From NCBI GenBank assembly GCA_965222605.1, contig OZ244960.1, positions 4,896,001 to 4,960,000 on the forward strand: DNA of 64,000 nucleotides, written 5' to 3'. The translations under genes and the position numbers were made by a program. The notes under the pieces were generated by a model, which saw nothing but the letters and a program-made list of their open reading frames with translations, was not told the DNA's origin and did no database searches. Every line of letters begins with the position of its first letter. Position 1 is the first letter of the stretch. This stretch comes from Candidatus Latescibacterota bacterium. GTDB lineage: Bacteria > Latescibacterota > UBA2968. This document shows, in pieces, positions 8,459 to 19,032 of this stretch.

Positions 8459-8529
8459 GCCAATTATATATCCTTGTTTTATCGTGCCTTAGAATATTCT
8501 GAGGCACTTTTTTTTGGTTTTTTTCAAAA

Positions 8530-8546
8530 TGGGCACGGCTTTTGCA
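8530..8546 (+). promoter_or_regulatory. Sigma54 (RpoN) -24/-12 promoter
   Basis: TGGGCACGGCTTTTGCA = GG-N10-GC with CACG and TTGCA; matches the TGGCACG-N4-TTGCW consensus apart from one base. Confidence 0.7.
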
Positions 8547-8620
8547 AGATATGCTGTGTGCAAATCGCGTGAATGGGATTGAGGCGGACGAGATGTCCGC
8601 GATGCCAGAGGGTTGAAGTT

Positions 8621-9895
8621 TTGAAAAATACTACAGTTGCGTTTTATAGCCAGCATCTCATTGGCGTTGGGCACCATTTTCGCAATCGACAGATTGTCAA
8701 TGCGTTGGTTAAGACTTGCGATGTGTTTTTCATCGATGGCGGGCGCCCGATTCCCGAGGCCGATCTCGATGAACGGGTGACGCGTATTTCCCTACCGCCT
8801 CTTCGCACGGGCGCACAGGGCATTGAGTCTGTTGATAAGGAGCGCGATTTGCAGGCTGTGATGTGCGAACGTCAGGTCAGGCTTTCCGAAGCGATGGAAC
8901 AGATTCGACCGGATGTGTTTTGTGTTGAATTTTTTCCTTTTTCCCGGTGGTCGCTCAAGGGCGAAATCCTCAATACCATTGTCAGGCTCAATCAGGTCAA
9001 TCCCGACGCGAAGGTGCTGTGTTCACTGCGCGATGTTCCCACGCGGGCAAAAAGCGATGAGTTGCAACCGGCTATTGCGCCTACAGAACGGCGCGATGGG
9101 GATGCGATGCGGTTTTATTCGGTGCCTTTTGGCGGGATACATCACGAGTATTTGTCTTTTAATCGGCGGTATTACGAGGAGGTTGTGCCCGTGTTGAATC
9201 AGTATTTCGATGCGGTGCTGGTGCATGGCGATTCCCAACTATCGCGGTTGGAAGATCACTTTCCATGGGTTGCTGATATCGGGATTCCCGTGGTTTATAC
9301 GGGATTTGTTTCTGAGAAACTCGAGGATGTCTCTCGGCCTGACAGTGCGTCCGATCAGTATGTTTTGGTCAGTGCTGGCGGTGGTGCTGAGGGGCTTGCG
9401 CTTGTCGCGCCGTGTATTGAAGCGTGGAAAAAATTGGAACAGGACGATGTGCACGATGGACGCGAGATGGTGATTTTTGCAGGTGCGTTTATCGATGAAA
9501 CGCATTTTGACGCTTTGCGCGAGTTGTGCGGCGATGGTCCGTTTCGTATTGAACGCTTTACGTCCAATTTTTTGGCCTGGATGAAATACACAGATTTGTC
9601 GATTAGCCGCGCGGGCTACAATACCTGTATGAATGTACTTGAGACGCAAGTTCCAACGATTTTGGTGCCGAGTATTGCGATGGATGATCAGGAGTTTCGC
9701 GCACAGAAGTTGATGGCGTTGGGCCTCGCACGGGTGATACATCCCGACCACTTATCCGTGGCAAAGATGGCAAAATCCATTGCCGAAATGCTCGAAAGTT
9801 CTGTGCCTGAACACCATCTATCCCTGGGTGGTGCCGAGCAAACGCGAAAGTTTATAGAATTAGCGGTACAAGGTAAAAAACGAGGTGAAAGATGA
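8621..9895 (+). CDS. GT-B glycosyltransferase (COG4671-like, GT28 C-terminal domain)
   Basis: FYSQHLIGVGH, EFFPF, SLRD, LVHGD, SAGGG, SRAGYNT; probable TTG start at 8621 (track start 8573). Confidence 0.8.
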   Translation: MKNTTVAFYSQHLIGVGHHFRNRQIVNALVKTCDVFFIDGGRPIPEADLDERVTRISLPPLRTGAQGIESVDKERDLQAVMCERQVRLSEAMEQIRPDVFCVEFFPFSRWSLKGEILNTIVRLNQVNPDAKVLCSLRDVPTRAKSDELQPAIAPTERRDGDAMRFYSVPFGGIHHEYLSFNRRYYEEVVPVLNQYFDAVLVHGDSQLSRLEDHFPWVADIGIPVVYTGFVSEKLEDVSRPDSASDQYVLVSAGGGAEGLALVAPCIEAWKKLEQDDVHDGREMVIFAGAFIDETHFDALRELCGDGPFRIERFTSNFLAWMKYTDLSISRAGYNTCMNVLETQVPTILVPSIAMDDQEFRAQKLMALGLARVIHPDHLSVAKMAKSIAEMLESSVPEHHLSLGGAEQTRKFIELAVQGKKRGER

Positions 9896-11295
9896 AAATT
9901 TATGTGTCACATCCGTATCACGACCGCGAGAAAGTGATAGAGTCGAATATCGGGGCATCCCTTTCGGGTTTTAACCATGTGCAGGCGTTATCGCAGTATT
10001 GCGATGTGTATATGCCAGCGTCTGAAGCGGTGGATTATGGTCCGAATTTGCACGGTACTCGGGTTGCATTTGAGACGATTGATTCGTCTCGACAATGGTT
10101 TGAGCGGCAGGGATATGACGGTGTGCTGATGTTTGAACCCAAGGTAGATGACATAGCGTTTTTCCGCCATGTGTGTTCCGCGCCCATTGTGATTCGGCTG
10201 TCGTGCTCTTTTGGACACAATCGCGATTTTATAGACAAGGTGCTGAATTGTTATTCGCTGTTGCGGCCTTATGATGCCCTGTCACCCAAGTCGGCATATG
10301 TCGCTGACGAAATCGGCAAGCTGGTGTTTGACCGATCGTATTTGCAGGCGATTACCAATGGAGTAGATGCCGAGGTGTTCAAGCCGATGGATAAGTTACA
10401 GGCGCGAAAAGATGTCGCGGATAAGACGGGTGATCAACGCTTTTTGGAGATGCCAGTGGTGGGTTTTTGCGGGCGGTTTGAACCGAGCAAGGGCGCGTAT
10501 CCATTTTTGCGAATGGCCGATCTGAATCCCAATATGTTGTTTGCGGTGATTGGCAAGCAGTTCGCACCCGTGACCCATCCGCCCAATGTGATCTTTTTGG
10601 GTGCGCAACCCTATACGCAGATGCCGCTGTATTACAATATACTCGATGTGTTGTGCGCGCTGTCGGTGTATTCGTATGAGTCGTGTCCTTCAACTGTGCT
10701 GGAGGGGATGGCGTGTGGCCTTCCGGTTGTGGCGACAAATTTTGCGGGCGCGCCAGAGTTGTTGGGCAGTTGTGGGCGGTTGATTGAGATTGAGCGGTTT
10801 GAAGATGAGCCATTGAATGTGACGGGTTATATCGCCCCTGAGGTGATTTCAGATGCTGTGCGCGATTTGTTGAATAGCAAAACGGAGCGCTTGGAAATGG
10901 GAGAAGGTGCTCGCAAACGTTCGCTCGAATTTTCCTGGGATCATACGGCGCAGCAGCACATGGCATTGTTTGAAGATCTGCTGGCCAAACGCGATGCACC
11001 CGCCTGCCCGATTCCAATAACCGTGAATTTTACACAGAGTTGTGATGCGTCTGGTAACCCGAAAAGTGTGTCCAAAGGATTTAACTATCTGGGCAGCAGA
11101 CAAGGTCCTTTCCCACGCATCTCGTTTTTTGGGCAGGATATGTCCCTTATTGAGGGCCTGGGTCTTCATTTGATGCAACATTTACACCCAAACGAAGTCG
11201 AAGCCGCTCTGTTGGGCTTATGCGAGACGCGCGCTACAGCCTACAAAACGCTTCGCAAAATCCGACACTTCAGCGATATGCTCACGGCTCCCTGA
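9892..11295 (+). CDS. GT4 glycosyltransferase with ~95-aa C-terminal extension
   Basis: ITNGVD, GRFEPSKG, E-x7-E (ESCPSTVLE), GMACGLPVVAT, FSWD; ATGA overlap with the upstream GT. Confidence 0.85.
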   Translation: MKIYVSHPYHDREKVIESNIGASLSGFNHVQALSQYCDVYMPASEAVDYGPNLHGTRVAFETIDSSRQWFERQGYDGVLMFEPKVDDIAFFRHVCSAPIVIRLSCSFGHNRDFIDKVLNCYSLLRPYDALSPKSAYVADEIGKLVFDRSYLQAITNGVDAEVFKPMDKLQARKDVADKTGDQRFLEMPVVGFCGRFEPSKGAYPFLRMADLNPNMLFAVIGKQFAPVTHPPNVIFLGAQPYTQMPLYYNILDVLCALSVYSYESCPSTVLEGMACGLPVVATNFAGAPELLGSCGRLIEIERFEDEPLNVTGYIAPEVISDAVRDLLNSKTERLEMGEGARKRSLEFSWDHTAQQHMALFEDLLAKRDAPACPIPITVNFTQSCDASGNPKSVSKGFNYLGSRQGPFPRISFFGQDMSLIEGLGLHLMQHLHPNEVEAALLGLCETRATAYKTLRKIRHFSDMLTAP

Positions 11296-11347
11296 TCGGC
11301 AAAGGGAGACAGCTTGCGCTGAGGTAGTGAAGAAAGGAGGTGAAAAA

Positions 11348-11566
11348 ATGACTGAGCGCATTACGTCGATGCCAGCACAAGTTTCTGTGACCTGTGTTCA
11401 ACTTCCCGGTCGAGAAATCGAACTGGCGCGTGGTGAGATGGCGAATACATCAGGAGGGTGCATTTTACCAGGAGAAGACATGTTTGAGCATGACCCACTT
11501 GAGCCTCTTGAAGATATTATTGATGATATCTGCGATACGGTGAGTGAATGGTGGGCTTCCTGGTAG
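11348..11566 (+). CDS. Putative RiPP precursor A (double-glycine leader + 35-aa acidic core)
   Basis: AAAGGAGGTG RBS; leader ends ELARGEMANTSGG; core CILPGEDMFEHDPLEPLEDIIDDICDTVSEWWASW. Confidence 0.8.
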   Translation: MTERITSMPAQVSVTCVQLPGREIELARGEMANTSGGCILPGEDMFEHDPLEPLEDIIDDICDTVSEWWASW

Positions 11567-11677
11567 CAATCGCGCCACGATCCATAAAACGCTATTTCTG
11601 GTATTTAAGTACTGGATGAAAACTATCTTTTTTTAGTACTTGACGAGTCTTACCATTTATTACTTTTGGAGGATATC

Positions 11678-12073
11678 ATGTCCGCTATTGTATTAAATAA
11701 TCGCGTAACTTCAGATTCAGACGCTGCTTTTGCCTCTTGCACGGCACTGCCCATCCATCAAACAACGCTCAATGCTGAAGAAATGGCGGGTATTGATGGT
11801 TTGGGGAGTTGGGGCGATGCTATTGATAAGGTTGGAGATTATGTTTCGGATGTTGTTGATTCAGTAGGAGATTATGTTTCGGATGCTGCTACTACTGCTT
11901 CGATAGCTATTTTCGGTGGGGCTGTTTATGCAGACTTAGATCCTGATCCATTTGGTTTCCCATCACCACCTGATACACTGATTATTATCACTCGGGAACC
12001 ACATGTGTGCAACGGCCCGATTGTGTACACATCTTATGGGTCTTGTTTGTGTCCGATGCCAGGCCGCCCGTAG
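11678..12073 (+). CDS. Putative RiPP precursor B (homologous leader, repeat-containing core)
   Basis: GGAGG RBS; leader ends LNAEEMAGIDG and aligns without gaps to precursor A. Confidence 0.75.
   Translation: MSAIVLNNRVTSDSDAAFASCTALPIHQTTLNAEEMAGIDGLGSWGDAIDKVGDYVSDVVDSVGDYVSDAATTASIAIFGGAVYADLDPDPFGFPSPPDTLIIITREPHVCNGPIVYTSYGSCLCPMPGRP
11834..11885 (+). repeat. 19-bp direct repeat at 33-bp period inside precursor B
   Basis: GGAGATTATGTTTCGGATG at 11834-11852 and 11867-11885 (GDYVSD twice). Confidence 0.9.
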
Positions 12074-12177
12074 GTTCGCTGTGCATCAACCCGTCATTCC
12101 CGCACACGCGCACAATGTAGTCACACGTAGAAAAATGCCATTAATCTCGCAGCCCTTTTTGGAGTTGCCTGAGGCAA

Positions 12178-15100
12178 ATGCCTACGGCGTGTGCAGGAGT
12201 GACGGCAATCTATATGAGGCATGATAAAAAAATGAATCTTTCGGTTTTTTTCGCAAAAAACTCAGTTCGGTCACAACCCGCTCGTTATTCCTTTGGAGGT
12301 ATTGTTTGTCAACGGGGACAAGCGGGTGAGGCGTTTTACATTGTGCAATCTGGACGGTTGCGGGTGATCAAACAAGATGCGAATGGCAATTCGGCCACTG
12401 TGGGCTATTTGTATGCGGGCGATCATTTTGGCGAAGGGGCATTGTTGAACCGGCAGGGACATCGGGCGACGGTGCGGGCGGTTGAGGATGCGGATGTGTT
12501 GCAGGTGCCGAAGGATGAATTTTTTAAGGCTGTGAGAAAACATTCTGACCTGAAAGCCTATCTTAAGGAGCAGGTCGCCTGTATTGCGTATCGGGATTTT
12601 ACGCGATTTTTGAAAGGAGATGTTCCGAGCGAGGCGATGCGGGTGTTGTTCGCACGGTTGAAGCGCGAGGCGGTTGAGAAGGGTGTGACGGTTGTTGATC
12701 GCGGTCAGTTAGGACAGCGATTTTATTTGATTGGCAGCGGTCAGTTGGAGGCTGTGTCAGAAAATGGGGACACGGTGATTTTGAGCCAGGGTGATTATTT
12801 TGGAGATGAGAATTTATCAGGTGATAAAAGGGTGATTCGCAGTCGGTGTGATAGTGTGCTCTTTTATATAGATAAAAGCGATTTTAATAAATTAAAAGCT
12901 ATGATGCCGGGATTCGAGAAGGCGTTGGAGAGAGGCCGCATATTGCGTGGAGATCAGGCATCGAATGGGGCATTGTTGCGACAAGTGCGACAAGTACCTG
13001 AGCCACTTACTGCGCGATCTGATGAAAAACTGGCATCCAATACAACATCCAATGTGGTCAATATCAGAATAGACGGCGCAAAACCGCTTGTACCCACATT
13101 GTTGCGTTTTCCGTTTTTGAAGCAACACGATCAATCGGATTGTGGCGCGGCGTGTTTGGGCATGATTTGTAAGTATTACAAGATGCCGATTGGGTTGAAC
13201 AGGCTACGCGATATGTCCAATGTGTCGCGGTATGGCACGTCGGTGGCGGCATTGGCCGAGGCTGCGGAAACACTGGGTTTTGTCACGCGCGGCGTGCGCA
13301 CGGGGTATGAAGCCCTGATGCGAACAGACCTGCCAGCCATTCTCCACTGGGAAGGCAACCACTTTGTGGTTTTGTATCAGATTACAAAAAAGGAGGTGAA
13401 GATAGCAGATCCCGGCGTGGGTATTCGCAAGCTGTCGCGGGCAGAGTTCGAGAAGGGCTGGACAAATATGGCGCTGTTGTTGGAATACACAGATCAGGTG
13501 GCAGAGAACGAACCGTCTCGGTCTTCTTTTAAGCGGTTTTTCCCATTGATCAGACCCTATACAGGCATATTGATTGAGGTGCTATTAGCGTCTTTGGTGC
13601 TCAGTTTGTTTGGCCTGGCGTCGCCCATTTTTATGCAGACCATTGTCGATCAGGTGCTGGTGCATCACGACGCGGATTTGTTGAACTTGATGCTGGTGGG
13701 CATGATTGTTGTCGCGTTGTTCCAAATGGGTACATCGACGTTGCGCGTCTATTTAATCGGGTATGTGAGTGCGCGGTTGAGCATTGCGATGTTATCGCGT
13801 TTTTATCGGCATTTGCTGGCGCTGTCCATGCGGTTTTTTGCCCTGCGGCGCACGGGCGATTTGACCACGCGGTTTAGGGAGAATGCGACGATTCAGCGTT
13901 TGTTGACGGGTACGACGGTTTCTGCGATTCTGGATTTTATCATGCTTTTTGTCTATCTGGGTCTGATGTTTTATTACAATGCTGAACTGACGCTGATCAT
14001 GCTGATTTTTGTGCCGCTCTCTGTGGGTCTCACGCTGATTTACACGCCCATTTTGAAGTCTTTCAGCCAGCGCGCTTTTTTGGCGCGTGCCGAACAATCA
14101 TCGGTTTTAATCGATTCGCTGCACGGCATTGATGTGGTCAAAGCCGAGGCTGTGGAGCGCGCGACGCGGTGGCATTGGGAAGGTAAGTTCACAAAGGAAA
14201 TTCAGATTGGATTTCAGCGGTTAAAAATGCAGATGTTGTTTGGGGGGATCGGAAGAGTGTTCAATTTGTTGAGCAGTACGGTGATTTTGTGGTATGGTGC
14301 CTCATTAGTGATTGCGGGTGACCTGTCGGTGGGGCAGTTGATGGCGTTTAACGCGCTGATTGGCAATGTGATGGGACCGATTATGGGGTTGATTGGGATA
14401 TGGCCTCAGGTGCAAGAAGCGCGTATTGCATTGGATCGGCTGAATGATGTGTATGACACGCAGATGGAAGATGCGCGGCAACAGGGTCAGGGTTTGATCT
14501 TAAAGCATTTGGAAGGTCGGGTGGTGTTTGATGAGGTGTTTTTTAGATATGGTGTCGGTTCTGATGAACCTTATGTGTTGAATAACATAGACCTGATTCT
14601 CGAACCGGGTCAAAAAGTTGCGATTGTGGGACGCAGTGGCGCGGGCAAGACCACATTGGTAAAGCTGGTACCCCGTTTGTTTGATCCGTCAGAAGGGCGG
14701 GTGATGCTGGATGGTATGGATGTGCGAGACCTGGATCCCCATTGGTTGCGGCGGCAGGTGGGTATGGTGATGCAAGAGCCGTTTTTGTTTTCTGGCACGA
14801 TTGCAGAAAATATCGCCATTGGTCGAAAAGATGCCGACATGGATCGCATTTTGGAAGTGGCAAAACTATCGTGTGTACACGATTTTGTAAGCGATATGCC
14901 TTTGGGATATGAGACAAAGGTCGGTGAGCAGGGTGTAGGACTATCTGGTGGACAGCGACAGCGGATTGCAATTGCGCGGGCACTGTATTGCGATCCCAAA
15001 ATTTTGATTTTTGATGAGGCCACCAATGCGCTGGATACGGATTCAGAACAGGCGATGCAGGCGAATTTAGATATGTTTTTGGATGATCGCACGGCGTTGA

Positions 15101-15252
15101 TTATTGCCCATCGGTTGAGTACGGTGCGCGATGCGGATGCGATTGTGGTGCTGGATAAGGGTCATATTGTGGAGATGGGCACGCACGATGAGTTGATGGT
15201 GCAACAGGGTTTGTATTATCACCTGTGCAGTCAACAGTTGCAGGTGGTGTAA
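12178..15252 (+). CDS. Peptidase-containing ABC transporter (PCAT/HlyB type): 2 cNMP-binding domains + C39 peptidase + TMD + NBD
   Basis: GDHFGE and GDYFGD cNMP motifs; C39 triad QSDCG / NHFVV / IADP; GRSGAGKT, LSGGQ, ILIFDE; exact start uncertain (12178, 12214 or 12232). Confidence 0.92.
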   Translation: MPTACAGVTAIYMRHDKKMNLSVFFAKNSVRSQPARYSFGGIVCQRGQAGEAFYIVQSGRLRVIKQDANGNSATVGYLYAGDHFGEGALLNRQGHRATVRAVEDADVLQVPKDEFFKAVRKHSDLKAYLKEQVACIAYRDFTRFLKGDVPSEAMRVLFARLKREAVEKGVTVVDRGQLGQRFYLIGSGQLEAVSENGDTVILSQGDYFGDENLSGDKRVIRSRCDSVLFYIDKSDFNKLKAMMPGFEKALERGRILRGDQASNGALLRQVRQVPEPLTARSDEKLASNTTSNVVNIRIDGAKPLVPTLLRFPFLKQHDQSDCGAACLGMICKYYKMPIGLNRLRDMSNVSRYGTSVAALAEAAETLGFVTRGVRTGYEALMRTDLPAILHWEGNHFVVLYQITKKEVKIADPGVGIRKLSRAEFEKGWTNMALLLEYTDQVAENEPSRSSFKRFFPLIRPYTGILIEVLLASLVLSLFGLASPIFMQTIVDQVLVHHDADLLNLMLVGMIVVALFQMGTSTLRVYLIGYVSARLSIAMLSRFYRHLLALSMRFFALRRTGDLTTRFRENATIQRLLTGTTVSAILDFIMLFVYLGLMFYYNAELTLIMLIFVPLSVGLTLIYTPILKSFSQRAFLARAEQSSVLIDSLHGIDVVKAEAVERATRWHWEGKFTKEIQIGFQRLKMQMLFGGIGRVFNLLSSTVILWYGASLVIAGDLSVGQLMAFNALIGNVMGPIMGLIGIWPQVQEARIALDRLNDVYDTQMEDARQQGQGLILKHLEGRVVFDEVFFRYGVGSDEPYVLNNIDLILEPGQKVAIVGRSGAGKTTLVKLVPRLFDPSEGRVMLDGMDVRDLDPHWLRRQVGMVMQEPFLFSGTIAENIAIGRKDADMDRILEVAKLSCVHDFVSDMPLGYETKVGEQGVGLSGGQRQRIAIARALYCDPKILIFDEATNALDTDSEQAMQANLDMFLDDRTALIIAHRLSTVRDADAIVVLDKGHIVEMGTHDELMVQQGLYYHLCSQQLQVV

Positions 15253-16635
15253 ATGGCAGAATCGCTTTTGGAGACATCGGCTGAGACAGTAGTTCCCGGT
15301 ATAGTTCAGGAGCAAGATGACGCGGCAGAAGAGGTGCATGCGTTTATGGGGTCTTTGCGGCCCTTTTGGGGACGTGCAATGCTCTATATTGTCCTGCTGT
15401 TTGTGATCATTGCCATTACCTGGGCATGGTGGGGTGAGGTGGATATGGTGACATCAGCCCCTTTTCGACTGGTGCCTCTGGGGCAGGTGAAGACGATGCA
15501 GGCACAGCGAGGTGGTGAAATTGAGTTGATTGGTGTTAAAGAAGGGGATCATATTGAGAAAGGGCAGGTGTTATTTAAGCTCAAATCGTGGGAGACCTGG
15601 GGAGATTTGCGGGAATGGGAACAGGCAAAGATGGCTTTTCAGAAGGCGGAGTACGATCTCAAAAGGGTGTTGCCTCAAAGGGCAAAATTAAATCGAGAGA
15701 CGATAGGCGCGCTGGAACAACGCCTTTCTGTTTTGCAGCGGTTTATGGTGGCACACCAGAATGCGTTGAAAGATTATCAAAGCGATGTAGGCGATGTTGT
15801 GGGATCGAAAACCAAAGTATCTGACGCGGGATTGCAAGCGCAGATCGGTTTTCGGCAAGCTGAGATTGACCTTATGAAACAGGAATTTTTACAGCAAAAG
15901 GCGTTGTTTGAGCGCGAATTGATCAGCCGGACAGATATGAATCGCGCGCGTGTGCAGTATTTGAGTGCTCTGTCCGCACTTCCGTCGCGTATGTCAGAGA
16001 TATACAAGAATGAAATGGCGGTGCAGGATCTCAAGCGTCAAATTCTGGAAGCGCGTATTGCACACGAGCGCGAGGCATCGCAGATGCAACACGCTTATGA
16101 GATCGTACAATTGCGATTGGAACAGGCTCGCAAACGCATTGATCGTACCCTGGAAGCCGAGTCAGATCTGATTCTGGCACCTGAATCGGGCATTGTAACA
16201 CAGGTGATGGTGAATGCGATAGGACAGGTGATCAGCAAGGGGGCGCCTCTAATTACACTGGCACCGGCTTTGGCACCGATGGTTGCGGAACTGATGGTGT
16301 TGAATAAAGATGTGGGCTTGCTCAAACCCGGGCAATTGGTCAAACTGAAATACGGCGCTTATGCCTTTCAGGATTTTGGCATCAAACGCGGGTGGCTCAA
16401 ATACATCTCGCCCGATGCGATGATTGATAAAAGTATTGGACCGATATTTAAGTGTGTTGTCGAGTTGGAAGAAAATACCATGCATGTGCAAGGATACGAC
16501 AAACCGCTGATGTTCGGGATGAAGGGTACGGCAGAGATTATGACAGATCGCCAATCAGTCTTACTGATGTTGCTGAGTCCCTTGCGACAGCTTTACGAGT
16601 CGGCAAGGTACGATGTTCAAGAGGGTGCGTTGTGA
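15253..16635 (+). CDS. HlyD-family membrane fusion protein
   Basis: Single TM, VKEGDHIEKGQVL, coiled coil, APESGIV, FGMKGTAEI; starts immediately after the PCAT stop. Confidence 0.92.
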   Translation: MAESLLETSAETVVPGIVQEQDDAAEEVHAFMGSLRPFWGRAMLYIVLLFVIIAITWAWWGEVDMVTSAPFRLVPLGQVKTMQAQRGGEIELIGVKEGDHIEKGQVLFKLKSWETWGDLREWEQAKMAFQKAEYDLKRVLPQRAKLNRETIGALEQRLSVLQRFMVAHQNALKDYQSDVGDVVGSKTKVSDAGLQAQIGFRQAEIDLMKQEFLQQKALFERELISRTDMNRARVQYLSALSALPSRMSEIYKNEMAVQDLKRQILEARIAHEREASQMQHAYEIVQLRLEQARKRIDRTLEAESDLILAPESGIVTQVMVNAIGQVISKGAPLITLAPALAPMVAELMVLNKDVGLLKPGQLVKLKYGAYAFQDFGIKRGWLKYISPDAMIDKSIGPIFKCVVELEENTMHVQGYDKPLMFGMKGTAEIMTDRQSVLLMLLSPLRQLYESARYDVQEGAL

Positions 16636-17411
16636 TGTCAGAGGATGCCACACTGATTCGGGTCAATGGTATTGCAGTGTCATTGCGCCATGTCGTGCGG
16701 CAACTGGGCGTTGCTGGTAATCTGCGTTTTTTTGATGGATTTACGCGCAGGGAATTGGTCCGACAACTCGCGCTGCGCGAGGGTGTTTGCGCAACGCGTG
16801 AAGATATTCAGCGCAAGGTAGATGAATGGCGGTATCAACACCGTTTGGAGCGGGTGGAAGATACAGAGGCATGGCTTGTAAAGCGGAGTATTACGCTTCA
16901 GGATGTGACAGAAGATGCCGAGGTGAGGCAGTTGGAATATTTGCTGTCTGAGAAGATTGCCGAGGGACAGGTTGAACCCTATTTCGTGCAACACATGCTG
17001 GAGTTTGACGAGGCGGAGATTTGCTGGATTTTTCACGCGGATAAGGGTGTGATCGACGAGATTGATTTGCAGATCCGAGAAGATAGTGCAGATTTTTACG
17101 CGATGGCGCGTCGATTTTCTCAAGATGCACGCACGCGATCAGGTAGTGGTTTTTTAGGCAGGGTGCGGCGCAAGCAGTTGCCCAAGGGGATTGCTGCGCG
17201 CGTTTTTGCCGCTTCCTCAGGTGAAATTTTTGGTCCGGAAAAAGTGTCGGGCGGGTTTGCGCTGTACCTGGTGCAGCAACTCTATCCGGCAACACTGGAC
17301 GAGCGGATTGCAAAGGAGATCCGCAAACACCTGTTTAATCAGTGGTTGCAACGAGAGATGCAGCGAGCAGATATACGGTATCCGATTTGGCAGATGGAAA
17401 TAACAAAATAA
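16635..17411 (+). CDS. Parvulin/PpiC-type peptidyl-prolyl isomerase-like protein
   Basis: FYAMARRFSQD, SGFLGRV, VFAA..GEIFGP; TGATG overlap with hlyD puts the start at 16635. Confidence 0.8.
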   Translation: MSEDATLIRVNGIAVSLRHVVRQLGVAGNLRFFDGFTRRELVRQLALREGVCATREDIQRKVDEWRYQHRLERVEDTEAWLVKRSITLQDVTEDAEVRQLEYLLSEKIAEGQVEPYFVQHMLEFDEAEICWIFHADKGVIDEIDLQIREDSADFYAMARRFSQDARTRSGSGFLGRVRRKQLPKGIAARVFAASSGEIFGPEKVSGGFALYLVQQLYPATLDERIAKEIRKHLFNQWLQREMQRADIRYPIWQMEITK

Positions 17412-17453: not shown

Positions 17454-18305
17454 CTATGGCATTACGGCTTTTTCGCCCTGATATTTGCTGATCCAGCTTT
17501 TCAAAGGAACATCTCCTTCTTTTGGCGATGTGTAGCCGTGAATGCCCGAAGGAGAATGCCGGCACATTTGCTTTCGGATTGGACTCAGTTGATCCCAGAA
17601 ATTTTCCACGTTGCATTCGCCGCGCGCTTGAAGCCAGCGGTAAGCGTATCCGTAGAAGATCACCTTGCGGGGTTGCGTCCAATAATTTGCACTCGCTGAA
17701 TGCCACAACCGACGGTCAAAAATAACGGCTGAACCCCGGGGAGCGAGGACGGGTATAGAGCCCTTTACCATCTGATTGCGATTTCCGTTCGGCCACTTCA
17801 TCGTATTTTTTAACTGGCTTCCCGGAATGATGTGAAAATTGCCGCGTTCCGGTTCGCTTGTATCCGATAGAAAGTAAGCTACTTTGACCGATAAGCGCGG
17901 CCTCGGGCTTGTCTCCATTTCCTGATTCACGCGCCCGGTATCTTGATGCCAACTGAGTCCCAAACCGCGTTTGCTATCTGGTGGTTCGGGAGGCGTTACG
18001 TCCATGTGTGCCAGATAGATTTGTATATTCCATCCCAAGATCCCCCAAACTTTTGGGAATGTCGTATAGTGATCTATCAAGTCAATAAATGCACGATCTC
18101 GCCCCATAAAGTCGATTTCGTGAACCCGCTTATGTGGGTCAATTTTTTGTTTTTCGCGTTCCTCGGCATTGATGCGATCAACTGCTTTGGTCAGTTGTCT
18201 TCTTTTCGCATCGCTCAGTGCGTTTTCAATGATTAGATAACCCCGGTCCTCAAATTCGAGGCGTTCGTCTTCAGTCAGGCAATGGTTTAGCCAGCGTTTG
18301 TTCAT
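17454..18305 (-). CDS. Phytanoyl-CoA dioxygenase (PhyH) family Fe(II)/2OG dioxygenase
   Basis: FEDRGYLII, WHQD, IPGS, RLWH. Confidence 0.85.
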   Translation of the reverse strand: MNKRWLNHCLTEDERLEFEDRGYLIIENALSDAKRRQLTKAVDRINAEEREKQKIDPHKRVHEIDFMGRDRAFIDLIDHYTTFPKVWGILGWNIQIYLAHMDVTPPEPPDSKRGLGLSWHQDTGRVNQEMETSPRPRLSVKVAYFLSDTSEPERGNFHIIPGSQLKNTMKWPNGNRNQMVKGSIPVLAPRGSAVIFDRRLWHSASANYWTQPRKVIFYGYAYRWLQARGECNVENFWDQLSPIRKQMCRHSPSGIHGYTSPKEGDVPLKSWISKYQGEKAVMP

Positions 18306-18318
18306 AGCGCATCTCCTT

Positions 18319-18786
18319 TCATGAAAAGAGGTTGGCCTTCTTTTTTCGTCGATCCAGAATATAGAATTTGATAAGCCCTATCCCGCCGATCAGACTACAG
18401 GGTATCACAATGAAGCGGTACATTGAGACTTCGTCATATCGAAGCGATGCACCGGTCGCGCCTATTGTCACGACCACAAATGATATGTGAATGAGTTTTT
18501 GAGATAGGTATTTATTGACAAAGGTAGAGATTAGAATCAACGCGAGCGCCGTGTGGAAAATGACAAATCCCGCATAACCGTTTCGCACGGCGAGATCAAA
18601 ATGCCAATCATAGCGATAAAGCCATACCATGAGCACATGTGTCAGAATGATCAGCGCGACAGCACGCCACAGCGCGATCGGGTGTTGTTCTCGCAGCGTG
18701 AGCACAACCACAGTGGTCAATCCCACATATCCTGTGATCGCCAATAAAAAAGTGATGAAAATTTCCGTTGTTCCCGTTCCAACCAT
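18319..18786 (-). CDS. Hypothetical integral membrane protein (~5 TM)
   Basis: Hydrophobic segments; GGGAG RBS before ATG 18786. Confidence 0.6.
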   Translation of the reverse strand: MVGTGTTEIFITFLLAITGYVGLTTVVVLTLREQHPIALWRAVALIILTHVLMVWLYRYDWHFDLAVRNGYAGFVIFHTALALILISTFVNKYLSQKLIHISFVVVTIGATGASLRYDEVSMYRFIVIPCSLIGGIGLIKFYILDRRKKKANLFS

Positions 18787-18917
18787 CGACAGATTCTCCC
18801 TTCTCATAGCTCTGTGTCGCGTTTGATATGCAATATATCGCATGATATTCTAAGAACAAGAGCGTTTCACAGGTGCTGACATGTCTCTATTTGGTGTAGG
18901 CGATTCATTACATGCAA

Positions 18918-18956: not shown

Positions 18957-19032
18957 TGGAGCCGCCCAGCGGACTCGAACCGCTGACCGCCTGATTACAA
19001 ATCAGGTGCTCTACCAGCTGAGCTAGGGCGGC
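18957..19032 (-). tRNA. tRNA-Thr(TGT)
   Basis: GCCGCCCTAGCTCAGCTGGTAGAGCACCTGATTTGTAATCAGGCGGTCAGCGGTTCGAGTCCGCTGGGCGGCTCCA, 76 nt cloverleaf with encoded CCA. Confidence 0.97.

Follow-up and report, generated by a model that had tools for sequence, protein, structure and literature searches.

Between positions 8573 and 17411 of a 64,000-nucleotide stretch of a Candidatus Latescibacterota genome (contig OZ244960.1, positions 4,896,001 to 4,960,000; hereafter the window), seven genes on the same strand encode two glycosyltransferases (GTs) of the GT-B type, two small precursor peptides and a three-component export apparatus. Comparison with related loci shows a modular Latescibacterota locus, in which two conserved arms, one of GTs and the other of a peptidase-containing ATP-binding cassette transporter (PCAT), a HlyD-family protein and a PpiC-like protein, enclose a freely exchanged middle cassette. 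The locus very probably makes and exports double-glycine peptides, and the GT28-like and GT4 genes are probably a functional part of it, rather than casual neighbours. That the GTs glycosylate the precursor peptides, which PCAT and HlyD then export, is the leading explanation but a more tentative proposal, in which the doubts slightly outweigh the confidence. The seven genes, defined by their open reading frames (ORFs) and by Pfam and NCBIfam searches, are as follows.

8573..9895, + strand: GT28-like (MurG/MGT-like) GT-B glycosyltransferase, 440 amino acids (aa); Pfam PF04101 Glyco_tran_28_C, 1.3e-13
9892..11295, + strand: GT4-family GT-B glycosyltransferase, 467 aa; PF00534, 2.4e-18
11348..11566, + strand: preA, type A precursor, 72 aa; 37-aa leader ending SGG, followed by a 35-aa acidic core
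11678..12073, + strand: preB, type B precursor, 131 aa; leader containing NRVTS and, further on, FASCTALPIHQTTLNAEEMAGIDGL, followed by an acidic core
12178..15252, + strand: long PCAT, 1024 aa; two cNMP_binding stretches, C39, ABC_membrane and ABC_tran
15253..16635, + strand: HlyD-family membrane fusion protein; TIGR01843, 7.1e-60, and PF13437
16635..17411, + strand: PpiC/parvulin-like protein, 258 aa; PF00639, 9.4e-12, and TIGR04500, 2.8e-26

This arrangement recurs far beyond chance. Fifty-eight loci around relatives of the GT28-like gene were collected and scored with the window proteins; 33 contain a full-length GT28 match at 49-89% identity, and 30 of these have at least 5 kb of downstream DNA. 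A PCAT at 53-95% identity is present in 29 of the 30, and in the last one, L017, it lies 0.85 kb past the collected end, bringing the count to 30/30. A GT4 orthologue directly follows GT28 in 29 of the 30 loci (the exception is L016), and a fragment at a contig end, L026, keeps the same gene order. The initial annotation of the window had proposed co-occurrence of the GTs and PCAT in genome neighbourhoods as a check, and for GT28 relatives of at least 49% identity the outcome is in its favour. The unit moves as a block: a genome can have as many as three paralogous copies (OZ242195.1 holds L002, L007 and L009), and the upstream neighbours vary, from NadB/GuaA, as in the window, to a response-regulator/AraC gene, PIN, DUF362 and radical S-adenosylmethionine (rSAM)-SPASM genes. 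Among GT28 paralogues of at most 45% identity with 10 kb of downstream DNA, 0 of 12 loci have a GT4 orthologue or this PCAT. The closest GT28-like relatives come from metagenome-assembled genomes labelled Latescibacterota or Latescibacteria (26/26 loci), and because the linked clade is so far confined to one lineage, the 30 linked loci are not 30 independent events. The window genome, one 6.34-Mb contig, holds by tblastn a single GT28 and a single GT4, both at this locus, and the pair is therefore not a general housekeeping set.

The distant GT28 paralogues are found in three contexts: a carrier protein with an S8-DUF1611 fusion, MauE and MacB/HlyD; HlyD with a TPR/C39_2 protein and an ABC transporter; and polysaccharide-type clusters. 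For instance, the paralogues at L037:9688-11113 and L040:9612-11137 (43-45% identity) directly follow a phosphopantetheine-binding carrier protein and are flanked by an S8 subtilase-DUF1611 fusion, MauE/DoxX, Yip1, a thioredoxin-like protein and MacB/HlyD, a different uncharacterised secretion-linked cluster. At the left border of the linked loci, 3'-end fragments of guaA are repeated between guaA and the cluster (L023:9542-9790, L025:4128-6936 and L058:485-3727), which suggests recombination scars.

Within the window locus the genes are closely packed. GT28 and GT4 overlap by ATGA, the HlyD ATG begins at the first base past the TAA stop codon of PCAT, and HlyD and the PpiC-like gene share TGATG; GGAGG-type ribosome binding sites (AAAGGAGGTGAAAAAATG and TTTTGGAGGATATCATG) precede both small ORFs. 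The gene identities, the three junctions and the strong ribosome binding sites had been recognised in the initial annotation and are borne out by ORF positions, domain searches and the sequence at each junction. One gene start had to be corrected, as the PpiC-like gene begins at ATG 16635 and not, as earlier placed, at GTG 16452. The preA start lies 52 bp past the GT4 stop, with no terminator-like site in the gap by a promoter and terminator scan; across the locus the scan counts were not higher than in shuffles, and the sole suggestive element was a hairpin at 8484-8507, upstream of GT28. Pfam finds no LanM/LanB, rSAM, YcaO or ATP-grasp domain in the seven proteins, leaving the two GTs as the only candidate modifying enzymes of the window cluster, as originally supposed.

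Sequence comparison places both GTs within known GT-B families. The GT28-like protein matches TIGR01133 murG and TIGR01426 MGT weakly and over its C-terminal half only, and its N-terminal motif GVGHHFRN is invariant in an alignment of 14 relatives. In the GT4 protein, R195, K200 and the glutamates E263 and E271, with E-x7-E spacing, are invariant in 15 orthologues. GVGHHFRN, the R195/K200 pair and E-x7-E correspond to catalytic motifs of the respective families. Neither protein has a signal peptide, and both would therefore meet the precursors before export. PDB sequence searches with the two proteins returned generic GT1/GT28 and GT4 enzymes only, with no protein-glycosylating relative. The GT4 protein also carries a lineage-specific C-terminal extension (residues about 365-467), for which a phmmer search of 1.84 billion representatives gave 3 matches at E<=1e-30, 3 at E<=1e-10 and 5 at E<=1e-3, with no sequence relatives outside its family. 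An AlphaFold2 (AF2) model of the extension consists of a beta-hairpin, whose strands have a predicted local distance difference test (pLDDT) score <50, and a confident three-helix bundle; the full GT4 model, built from a 15-sequence alignment, had a mean pLDDT of 57.2 and was too poor for a fold search. A wide VIA-align search with the extension model gave generic three-helix matches, the best (Z 6.7) being a ribosomal protein, and among the matches listed for this model, with its low-confidence hairpin, there was no entry of the PqqD-like winged-helix type found in RiPP recognition elements (RREs; RiPP, a peptide made on the ribosome and modified after translation). Complex prediction for GT28, GT4 and preA, run without controls, scored 0.15 against a mark of 0.32, which speaks neither for nor against binding.

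The number of GT domains is not constant between loci. The GT28 ORF is 835-873 aa long in 19 loci, a count that leaves out seven loci in which the start was not assigned, and in all three long ORFs searched with Pfam a GT4 domain is fused to GT28, before it in L004 and L047 and behind it in L031. In the 841-aa L004 fusion protein, the window GT28-like protein has its counterpart in residues 414-838, and upstream of the window gene there is no remnant of an extra GT domain, such that the window has the minimal two-domain version. Variation of this sort suggests a glycan-building tailoring pathway, of which it would be expected. In one paralogous cluster, the region immediately upstream of the fused GT gene (L002:5840-7267) encodes a radical SAM/SPASM protein and has a 310-aa ORF without annotation; these may be an extra modifying enzyme there.

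The region between the two arms is where the loci differ most. The distance from the GT4 stop to the PCAT start is highly variable, from 0.77 to about 9.4 kb, and the window cassette contains preA and preB only. The two window leaders are colinear residue for residue (ERITSMPAQVSVTCVQLPGREIELARGEMANTSGG in preA and NRVTSDSDAAFASCTALPIHQTTLNAEEMAGIDGL in preB), in agreement with the homology originally noted. The preA core of 35 residues has 11 D/E and zero K/R, starts with Cys and ends in WWASW; the preB core, whose net charge is about -9, carries VGDYVSD in tandem and has Cys in its tail. Where preA has SGG, the preB leader reads GIDGL (window 11780-11800), and because GIDGL replaces GG, with Leu as the would-be -1 residue, the preB cleavage site is uncertain. 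The C39 domain may accept Leu at -1 in such leaders, or the cut may fall elsewhere.

By pattern search, 33 cassettes yield 62 precursors, which fall into two colinear leader families. Type A (n=25) reads M-T-x-R-I-x-S-x-P...L-P...L...S-G-G, followed by an acidic core ending in PW/SW; a 17-member alignment has M1, R4, P9, L19, P20, L26, G36 and G37 invariant, and at position +1 the 25 peptides have C (20), Y (4) or S (1). Type B (n=37) reads ...N-R-h-T-T/S...F-x-x-C-x-x-L-P...M...GG and occurs in both GT28 subfamilies. Leaders of the GG type make up 41 of the 62, and the other 21, all type B and including preB, end in DGL. The cores have a median length of 54.5 aa and a median net charge of -8, with 56 of 62 net negative, and are of several kinds, namely acidic repeats, Gly/Ala-rich hydrophobic sequences resembling class II bacteriocins, cores ended by CCCCCCCDD, and Ser/Thr/Gly/Pro-rich cores. 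The last are typical of subfamily 2 (50% identity), whose cores are long (100 aa); one example is L048, TTGKTGKTGTTGTTG. In its core (L048:7248-7700), (GKGG)4 leads into TTGKTG/TTGTTG repeats, a tract of Thr and Gly that resembles mucin, and the L047 orthologue is without the repeat. Runs of six to seven Cys followed by DD end the cassette peptides at L017:15820-16086, L017:17683-17925 and L024:13179-13433. A loose R-h-T-S/T motif is present in 61 of the 62 leaders; it was considered as a GT-specific leader signal and is not counted as evidence, because the motif is loose and because the GT-linked leaders and those of loci without GTs, which read ENIxEHTTS, are each monophyletic.

Many cassettes contain further genes, for Rce1/CPBP-like proteins (PF02517), DUF3267 zincin-like membrane proteins, small proteins with two transmembrane (TM) segments, an S41 peptidase, M16 peptidases and TPR proteins. 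Proteins of the CPBP type are often interpreted as conferring immunity to bacteriocins. An insertion sequence element (helix-turn-helix protein plus rve integrase) lies inside the variable cassette at L009:14810-15999, and at L057 a GT28 stump is fused onto a precursor array.

Turning to the export arm, the PCAT scores above the NCBIfam cut-off for TIGR01193, "peptide cleavage/export ABC transporter" (533.6 vs 523.85), and combines two stretches of PF00027, PF03412 Peptidase_C39 (2.8e-40), PF00664 and PF00005 in its single chain. The start codon is ambiguous, with M1, M13 or M19 as candidates. Its C39 signature is intact (QSDC322G, GNH395F and IAD411P), so that the Cys322/His395/Asp411 triad named at the outset is indeed in its usual motifs. 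HlyD scores 203.1 against TIGR01843, just below the cut-off of 208.65. The best named relative of the PpiC-like protein is TIGR04500, "putative peptide maturation system protein", of which it is not a member (92.6 bits, below the curated cut-off of 180), and inspection by eye found no N-terminal hydrophobic signal sequence in it.

This trio had been counted in the initial annotation as part of a new combination, but it is already known. In the cluster descriptions of Wang, Fewer and Sivonen 2011, cyanobacterial bacteriocin clusters are sorted into seven groups; the defining set of I, II and VI consists of a "long" C39 ABC transporter that bears CAP_ED at its N-terminus, together with HlyD and a "SurA" containing a rotamase domain (PMC3140520); a passage of a later paper repeats this definition (PMC4558948). 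The export arm of the window locus is a member of this long-PCAT/HlyD/SurA type. As far as those group descriptions extend, the likenesses comprise the extra N-terminal cNMP (CAP_ED) domain, represented by the two PF00027 stretches of the window PCAT; the presence of HlyD and rotamase-domain genes in the cluster, here adjoining with overlapping or abutting junctions; and neighbouring double-glycine precursors, often acidic, with the preA leader ending in SGG. Unlike the cyanobacterial clusters so described, the window locus belongs to a Latescibacterota host, has leaders that are not of the NHLP, Nif11 or HetP type, and adds both the GT arm and a hypervariable type of cassette with immunity-like genes. 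In the main text of the 2011 paper "glycosyl" occurs 0 times (PMC3140520). The GT arm is thus the new part of the locus.

The window genome itself offers a comparison, since tblastn finds three PCAT-HlyD-PpiC trios in it, two of them without GTs.

G000:C1:405000-424000 (L027): GT-less trio, also with a response-regulator/AraC gene
G000:C1:744000-763000 (L028): GT-less trio, interrupted by a 402-aa transposase-like ORF

Each of the two has two M16-type peptidases, a feature that cyanobacterial group II, as described in the source above, also adds to the trio, together with a Cys-rich zinc-ribbon-like protein and an extremely acidic precursor of 192-209 aa. Their leader, MPENIxEHTTSIAGLTCKPLxILSExISPxEMxMARGG, keeps the C..L(P)....EM....GG register of preA and preB. 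Because GT-less trios have both features, the long leader and the acidic core belong to the exporter family and not to the GTs. The highly acidic cores noted at the outset are thus not special to GT clusters, and leader length is likewise no sign of GT recognition.

How could these parts work together? In the proposed mechanism, the cytoplasmic GT28-like and GT4 enzymes of the left arm would add one to three sugars to the precursors, guided perhaps by the leader or by leader-proximal residues, such as C/Y/S at +1 of type A, or Ser/Thr. The leader is put forward as the guide because it is the only feature common to all cassette peptides. The PCAT, presumably regulated by cyclic nucleotide monophosphates (cNMPs), would then cut the leader and, together with HlyD and an outer-membrane channel whose gene lies elsewhere, export the product, and the PpiC-like protein might act as a cytoplasmic maturation or holding factor. 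In favour of this mechanism are the linkage of the GTs to the peptide locus, the varying number of GT domains, the family motifs and missing signal peptides of the two GTs, the colinear leaders of an otherwise variable cassette and the Ser/Thr-rich cores of subfamily 2. We infer peptide glycosylation from gene neighbourhood, and the peptides as acceptors, the site of glycosylation and an antimicrobial function are conjectural in the same sense. It is possible, if on balance doubtful, that the locus represents a new RiPP-like class, in which a leader-guided GT-B set of two to three catalytic domains puts a short glycan on any peptide that the swappable cassette supplies. Of the candidate new class proposed initially, the linkage of the GTs to the peptide locus stands (PCAT at all 30 loci), while the glycosylation step is an argument from neighbourhood; the class is put no more strongly than this because GT-B enzymes beside double-glycine microcins also exist in siderophore-microcin clusters.

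Several observations weigh against glycosylation of the peptides. No result shows a GT binding or modifying a precursor, and the cores are too diverse for a common acceptor residue, with a median Ser plus Thr content of 11% (n=62). GT-less trios also have the long leader (7 precursors from the 8 loci examined, with a GT28/GT4 match in 0/8) and acidic cores, which are consequently not GT-specific. L016 keeps the cluster without GT4, and at L057 a GT28 remnant adjoins precursors and immunity-like genes, neither GT4 nor PCAT being present within 10 kb. The more distant GT28 relatives, furthermore, sit in polysaccharide-type or carrier-protein contexts, and the pairing of a GT28 with a GT4 enzyme mirrors the classic pairing of MGD and DGD synthases, which make mono- and digalactosyldiacylglycerol (MGDG and DGDG).

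This last parallel also bears on an unlikely but serious alternative, that GT28 and GT4 build a glycolipid or envelope glycan, adding the first and second sugar to a membrane lipid or lipid-linked acceptor, for self-resistance or support of the exporter. By NCBIfam and PDB sequence search, the GT28-like protein has its closest named relatives among enzymes that act on lipids or small molecules, namely murG, MGT, YjiC (9e-07) and OleD, and those of GT4 are MshA, BshA and GlcNAc-phosphatidylglycerol synthase. The window cassette, moreover, has no recognisable immunity gene, and on this explanation protection must therefore come from elsewhere. A glycolipid pathway leaves unexplained why every paralogous copy of the peptide locus has its own GT set, why GT-less trios, whose peptides are similarly acidic, can do without such a lipid, and why cassettes whose Gly/Ala-rich peptides look membrane-active come with CPBP, DUF3267 and small TM genes of their own.

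Two further explanations are less probable still. In one, an ordinary unmodified class II-like double-glycine locus inherited the GTs by block duplication, and these serve an unrelated cellular glycan. The restriction of all loci to one phylum-level lineage, such that the co-occurrences are not independent, fits this idea, as do the resemblance of many cassette peptides to unmodified Gly/Ala-rich bacteriocins with immunity genes and the loss of GT4 in L016 and of both GTs in L057. It is nevertheless improbable, as linkage holds at divergence to 49-51% (GT28), 50% (GT4) and 53-66% (PCAT) identity and through relocation to several neighbourhoods, the GT genes overlap or abut with the first precursor close behind and no terminator-like site between, and the sole GT28 and GT4 of the genome, both being here, could hardly be a general housekeeping set. 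In the other, which we consider very improbable, the GTs glycosylate a small molecule made elsewhere, as in siderophore-microcins, the sugar being a handle that is joined to the peptide or the glycosylated molecule being the cargo of the exporter. The weak matches of the GT28-like protein to macrolide/MGT-type small-molecule GTs (TIGR01426, 2.7e-10, as well as YjiC) and the known placement of GT-B genes beside double-glycine class IIb microcins with PCAT/HlyD-type exporters speak for it. Pfam, however, finds no siderophore, esterase or acyltransferase-type domain in the seven window proteins, there is no such gene among the sampled cassette and flanking proteins of the paralogous loci, and type A cores end in Trp-rich motifs, not in a Ser-rich tail.

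Glycosylation of the peptides before export can also be set against systems in which comparable parts are found. The glycocins sublancin, glycocin F, pallidocin and enterocin F4-9 likewise have a double-glycine leader, a C39 PCAT and a dedicated GT beside the precursor, and one of their hallmarks is an S-linked sugar on Cys, the residue that begins most type A cores in the present loci. The GTs of glycocins belong to the SunS-type GT2/GT-A enzymes. In contrast, the GTs of the window type are GT-B enzymes of PF04101 and PF00534, two or three in number, with no PF00535 (GT2) match in the seven proteins by Pfam; the cores are without a helix-loop-helix and paired disulfides, and the host is of Gram-negative type and uses HlyD. 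Because both the GT2/GT-A feature and the disulfide-hairpin core fail, the window locus is not a glycocin locus. The siderophore-microcins MccE492, H47 and M are double-glycine peptides of Gram-negative bacteria with PCAT plus HlyD-type export and a GT-B enzyme (MceC/IroB) in the cluster. That enzyme glycosylates enterobactin, which other enzymes (MceI/J-type) join to the C-terminal Ser-rich tail; unlike these clusters, the window locus has no partner genes (esterase, MceI/J-type) among its seven proteins, and its type A cores end in PW/SW.

A parallel by description alone is the glycosylation of serine-rich-repeat adhesins, in which several cytoplasmic GT-B/GT4-type enzymes (GtfA/GtfB and more) act in sequence before dedicated export, as is proposed here. 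The adhesin substrates differ in being large and exported by accessory Sec, rather than leader peptides exported via PCAT. A group-1 GT (GT-B), TIGR04157 (glyco_rSAM_CFB), has been linked by curators to GG-leader peptide clusters of Bacteroidales; the window GT4 is not a member (28 bits against a cut-off of 400), and at the centre of that system stands a radical SAM enzyme, a gene absent from the window cluster. GT-B enzymes are known in RiPP tailoring, as in cacaoidin and lasso-peptide glycosylation. A locus of GT28/GT4, a double-glycine cassette and a cNMP-PCAT was undescribed, in Latescibacterota or elsewhere, in the full-text literature searched (supplements and subscription journals lay outside its scope), and in this respect the initial impression of an unrecognised combination holds, with the export trio alone known. 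For sponge-associated Latescibacterota genomes, the passages seen of one study give generic antiSMASH classes only, namely RiPP-like, RRE, ranthipeptide and LAP (PMC12993501).

Were the peptides indeed glycosylated, a single "glycosylate-and-export" chassis would serve dozens of unrelated cores, including acidic Trp-tailed, Gly/Ala-rich, poly-Cys-tailed and Ser/Thr/Gly-repeat sequences. Among uncultured phyla of Gram-negative type, no glycopeptide bacteriocin system would precede it, and GT-B enzymes would for the first time be seen to act directly on double-glycine precursors, as a second, structurally unrelated enzyme solution (GT-B and multi-domain) to ribosomal peptide glycosylation. Such a naturally promiscuous chassis, with a common leader for very different cores, would be attractive for peptide glyco-engineering, and it would point to chemical warfare or signalling in the Latescibacterota, a phylum without cultured members; the presence of up to three locus copies per genome suggests strong selection. 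Should the GTs act on lipids instead, a glycan pathway so strictly coupled to a bacteriocin-type exporter would still constitute a new principle of immunity or export.

A weak hint of expression comes from one metatranscriptome library (run X20), whose contigs, about 90% alike, extend over GT28, GT4, the junction of GT4 with preA, part of PCAT and the junction of HlyD with PpiC; the library may contain DNA, and contigs are no proof of one continuous transcript. The contigs do not cover 11811-12111 (the preB core), which says nothing about its expression because they derive from relatives with other cassettes.

Downstream of the PpiC-like gene, PhyH and a 174-aa membrane protein (17454-18843, - strand) were considered as cluster members and rejected, because only loci at the orthologous position have them behind the cluster. 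A tRNA-Thr(TGT) lies at window 18957-19032, also on the - strand. Across window 1-64000, the GC skew is strongly positive (0.14-0.31) with + strand genes and negative at 18-24 kb with - strand genes; its sign matches gene direction, and the skew therefore follows the coding strand.

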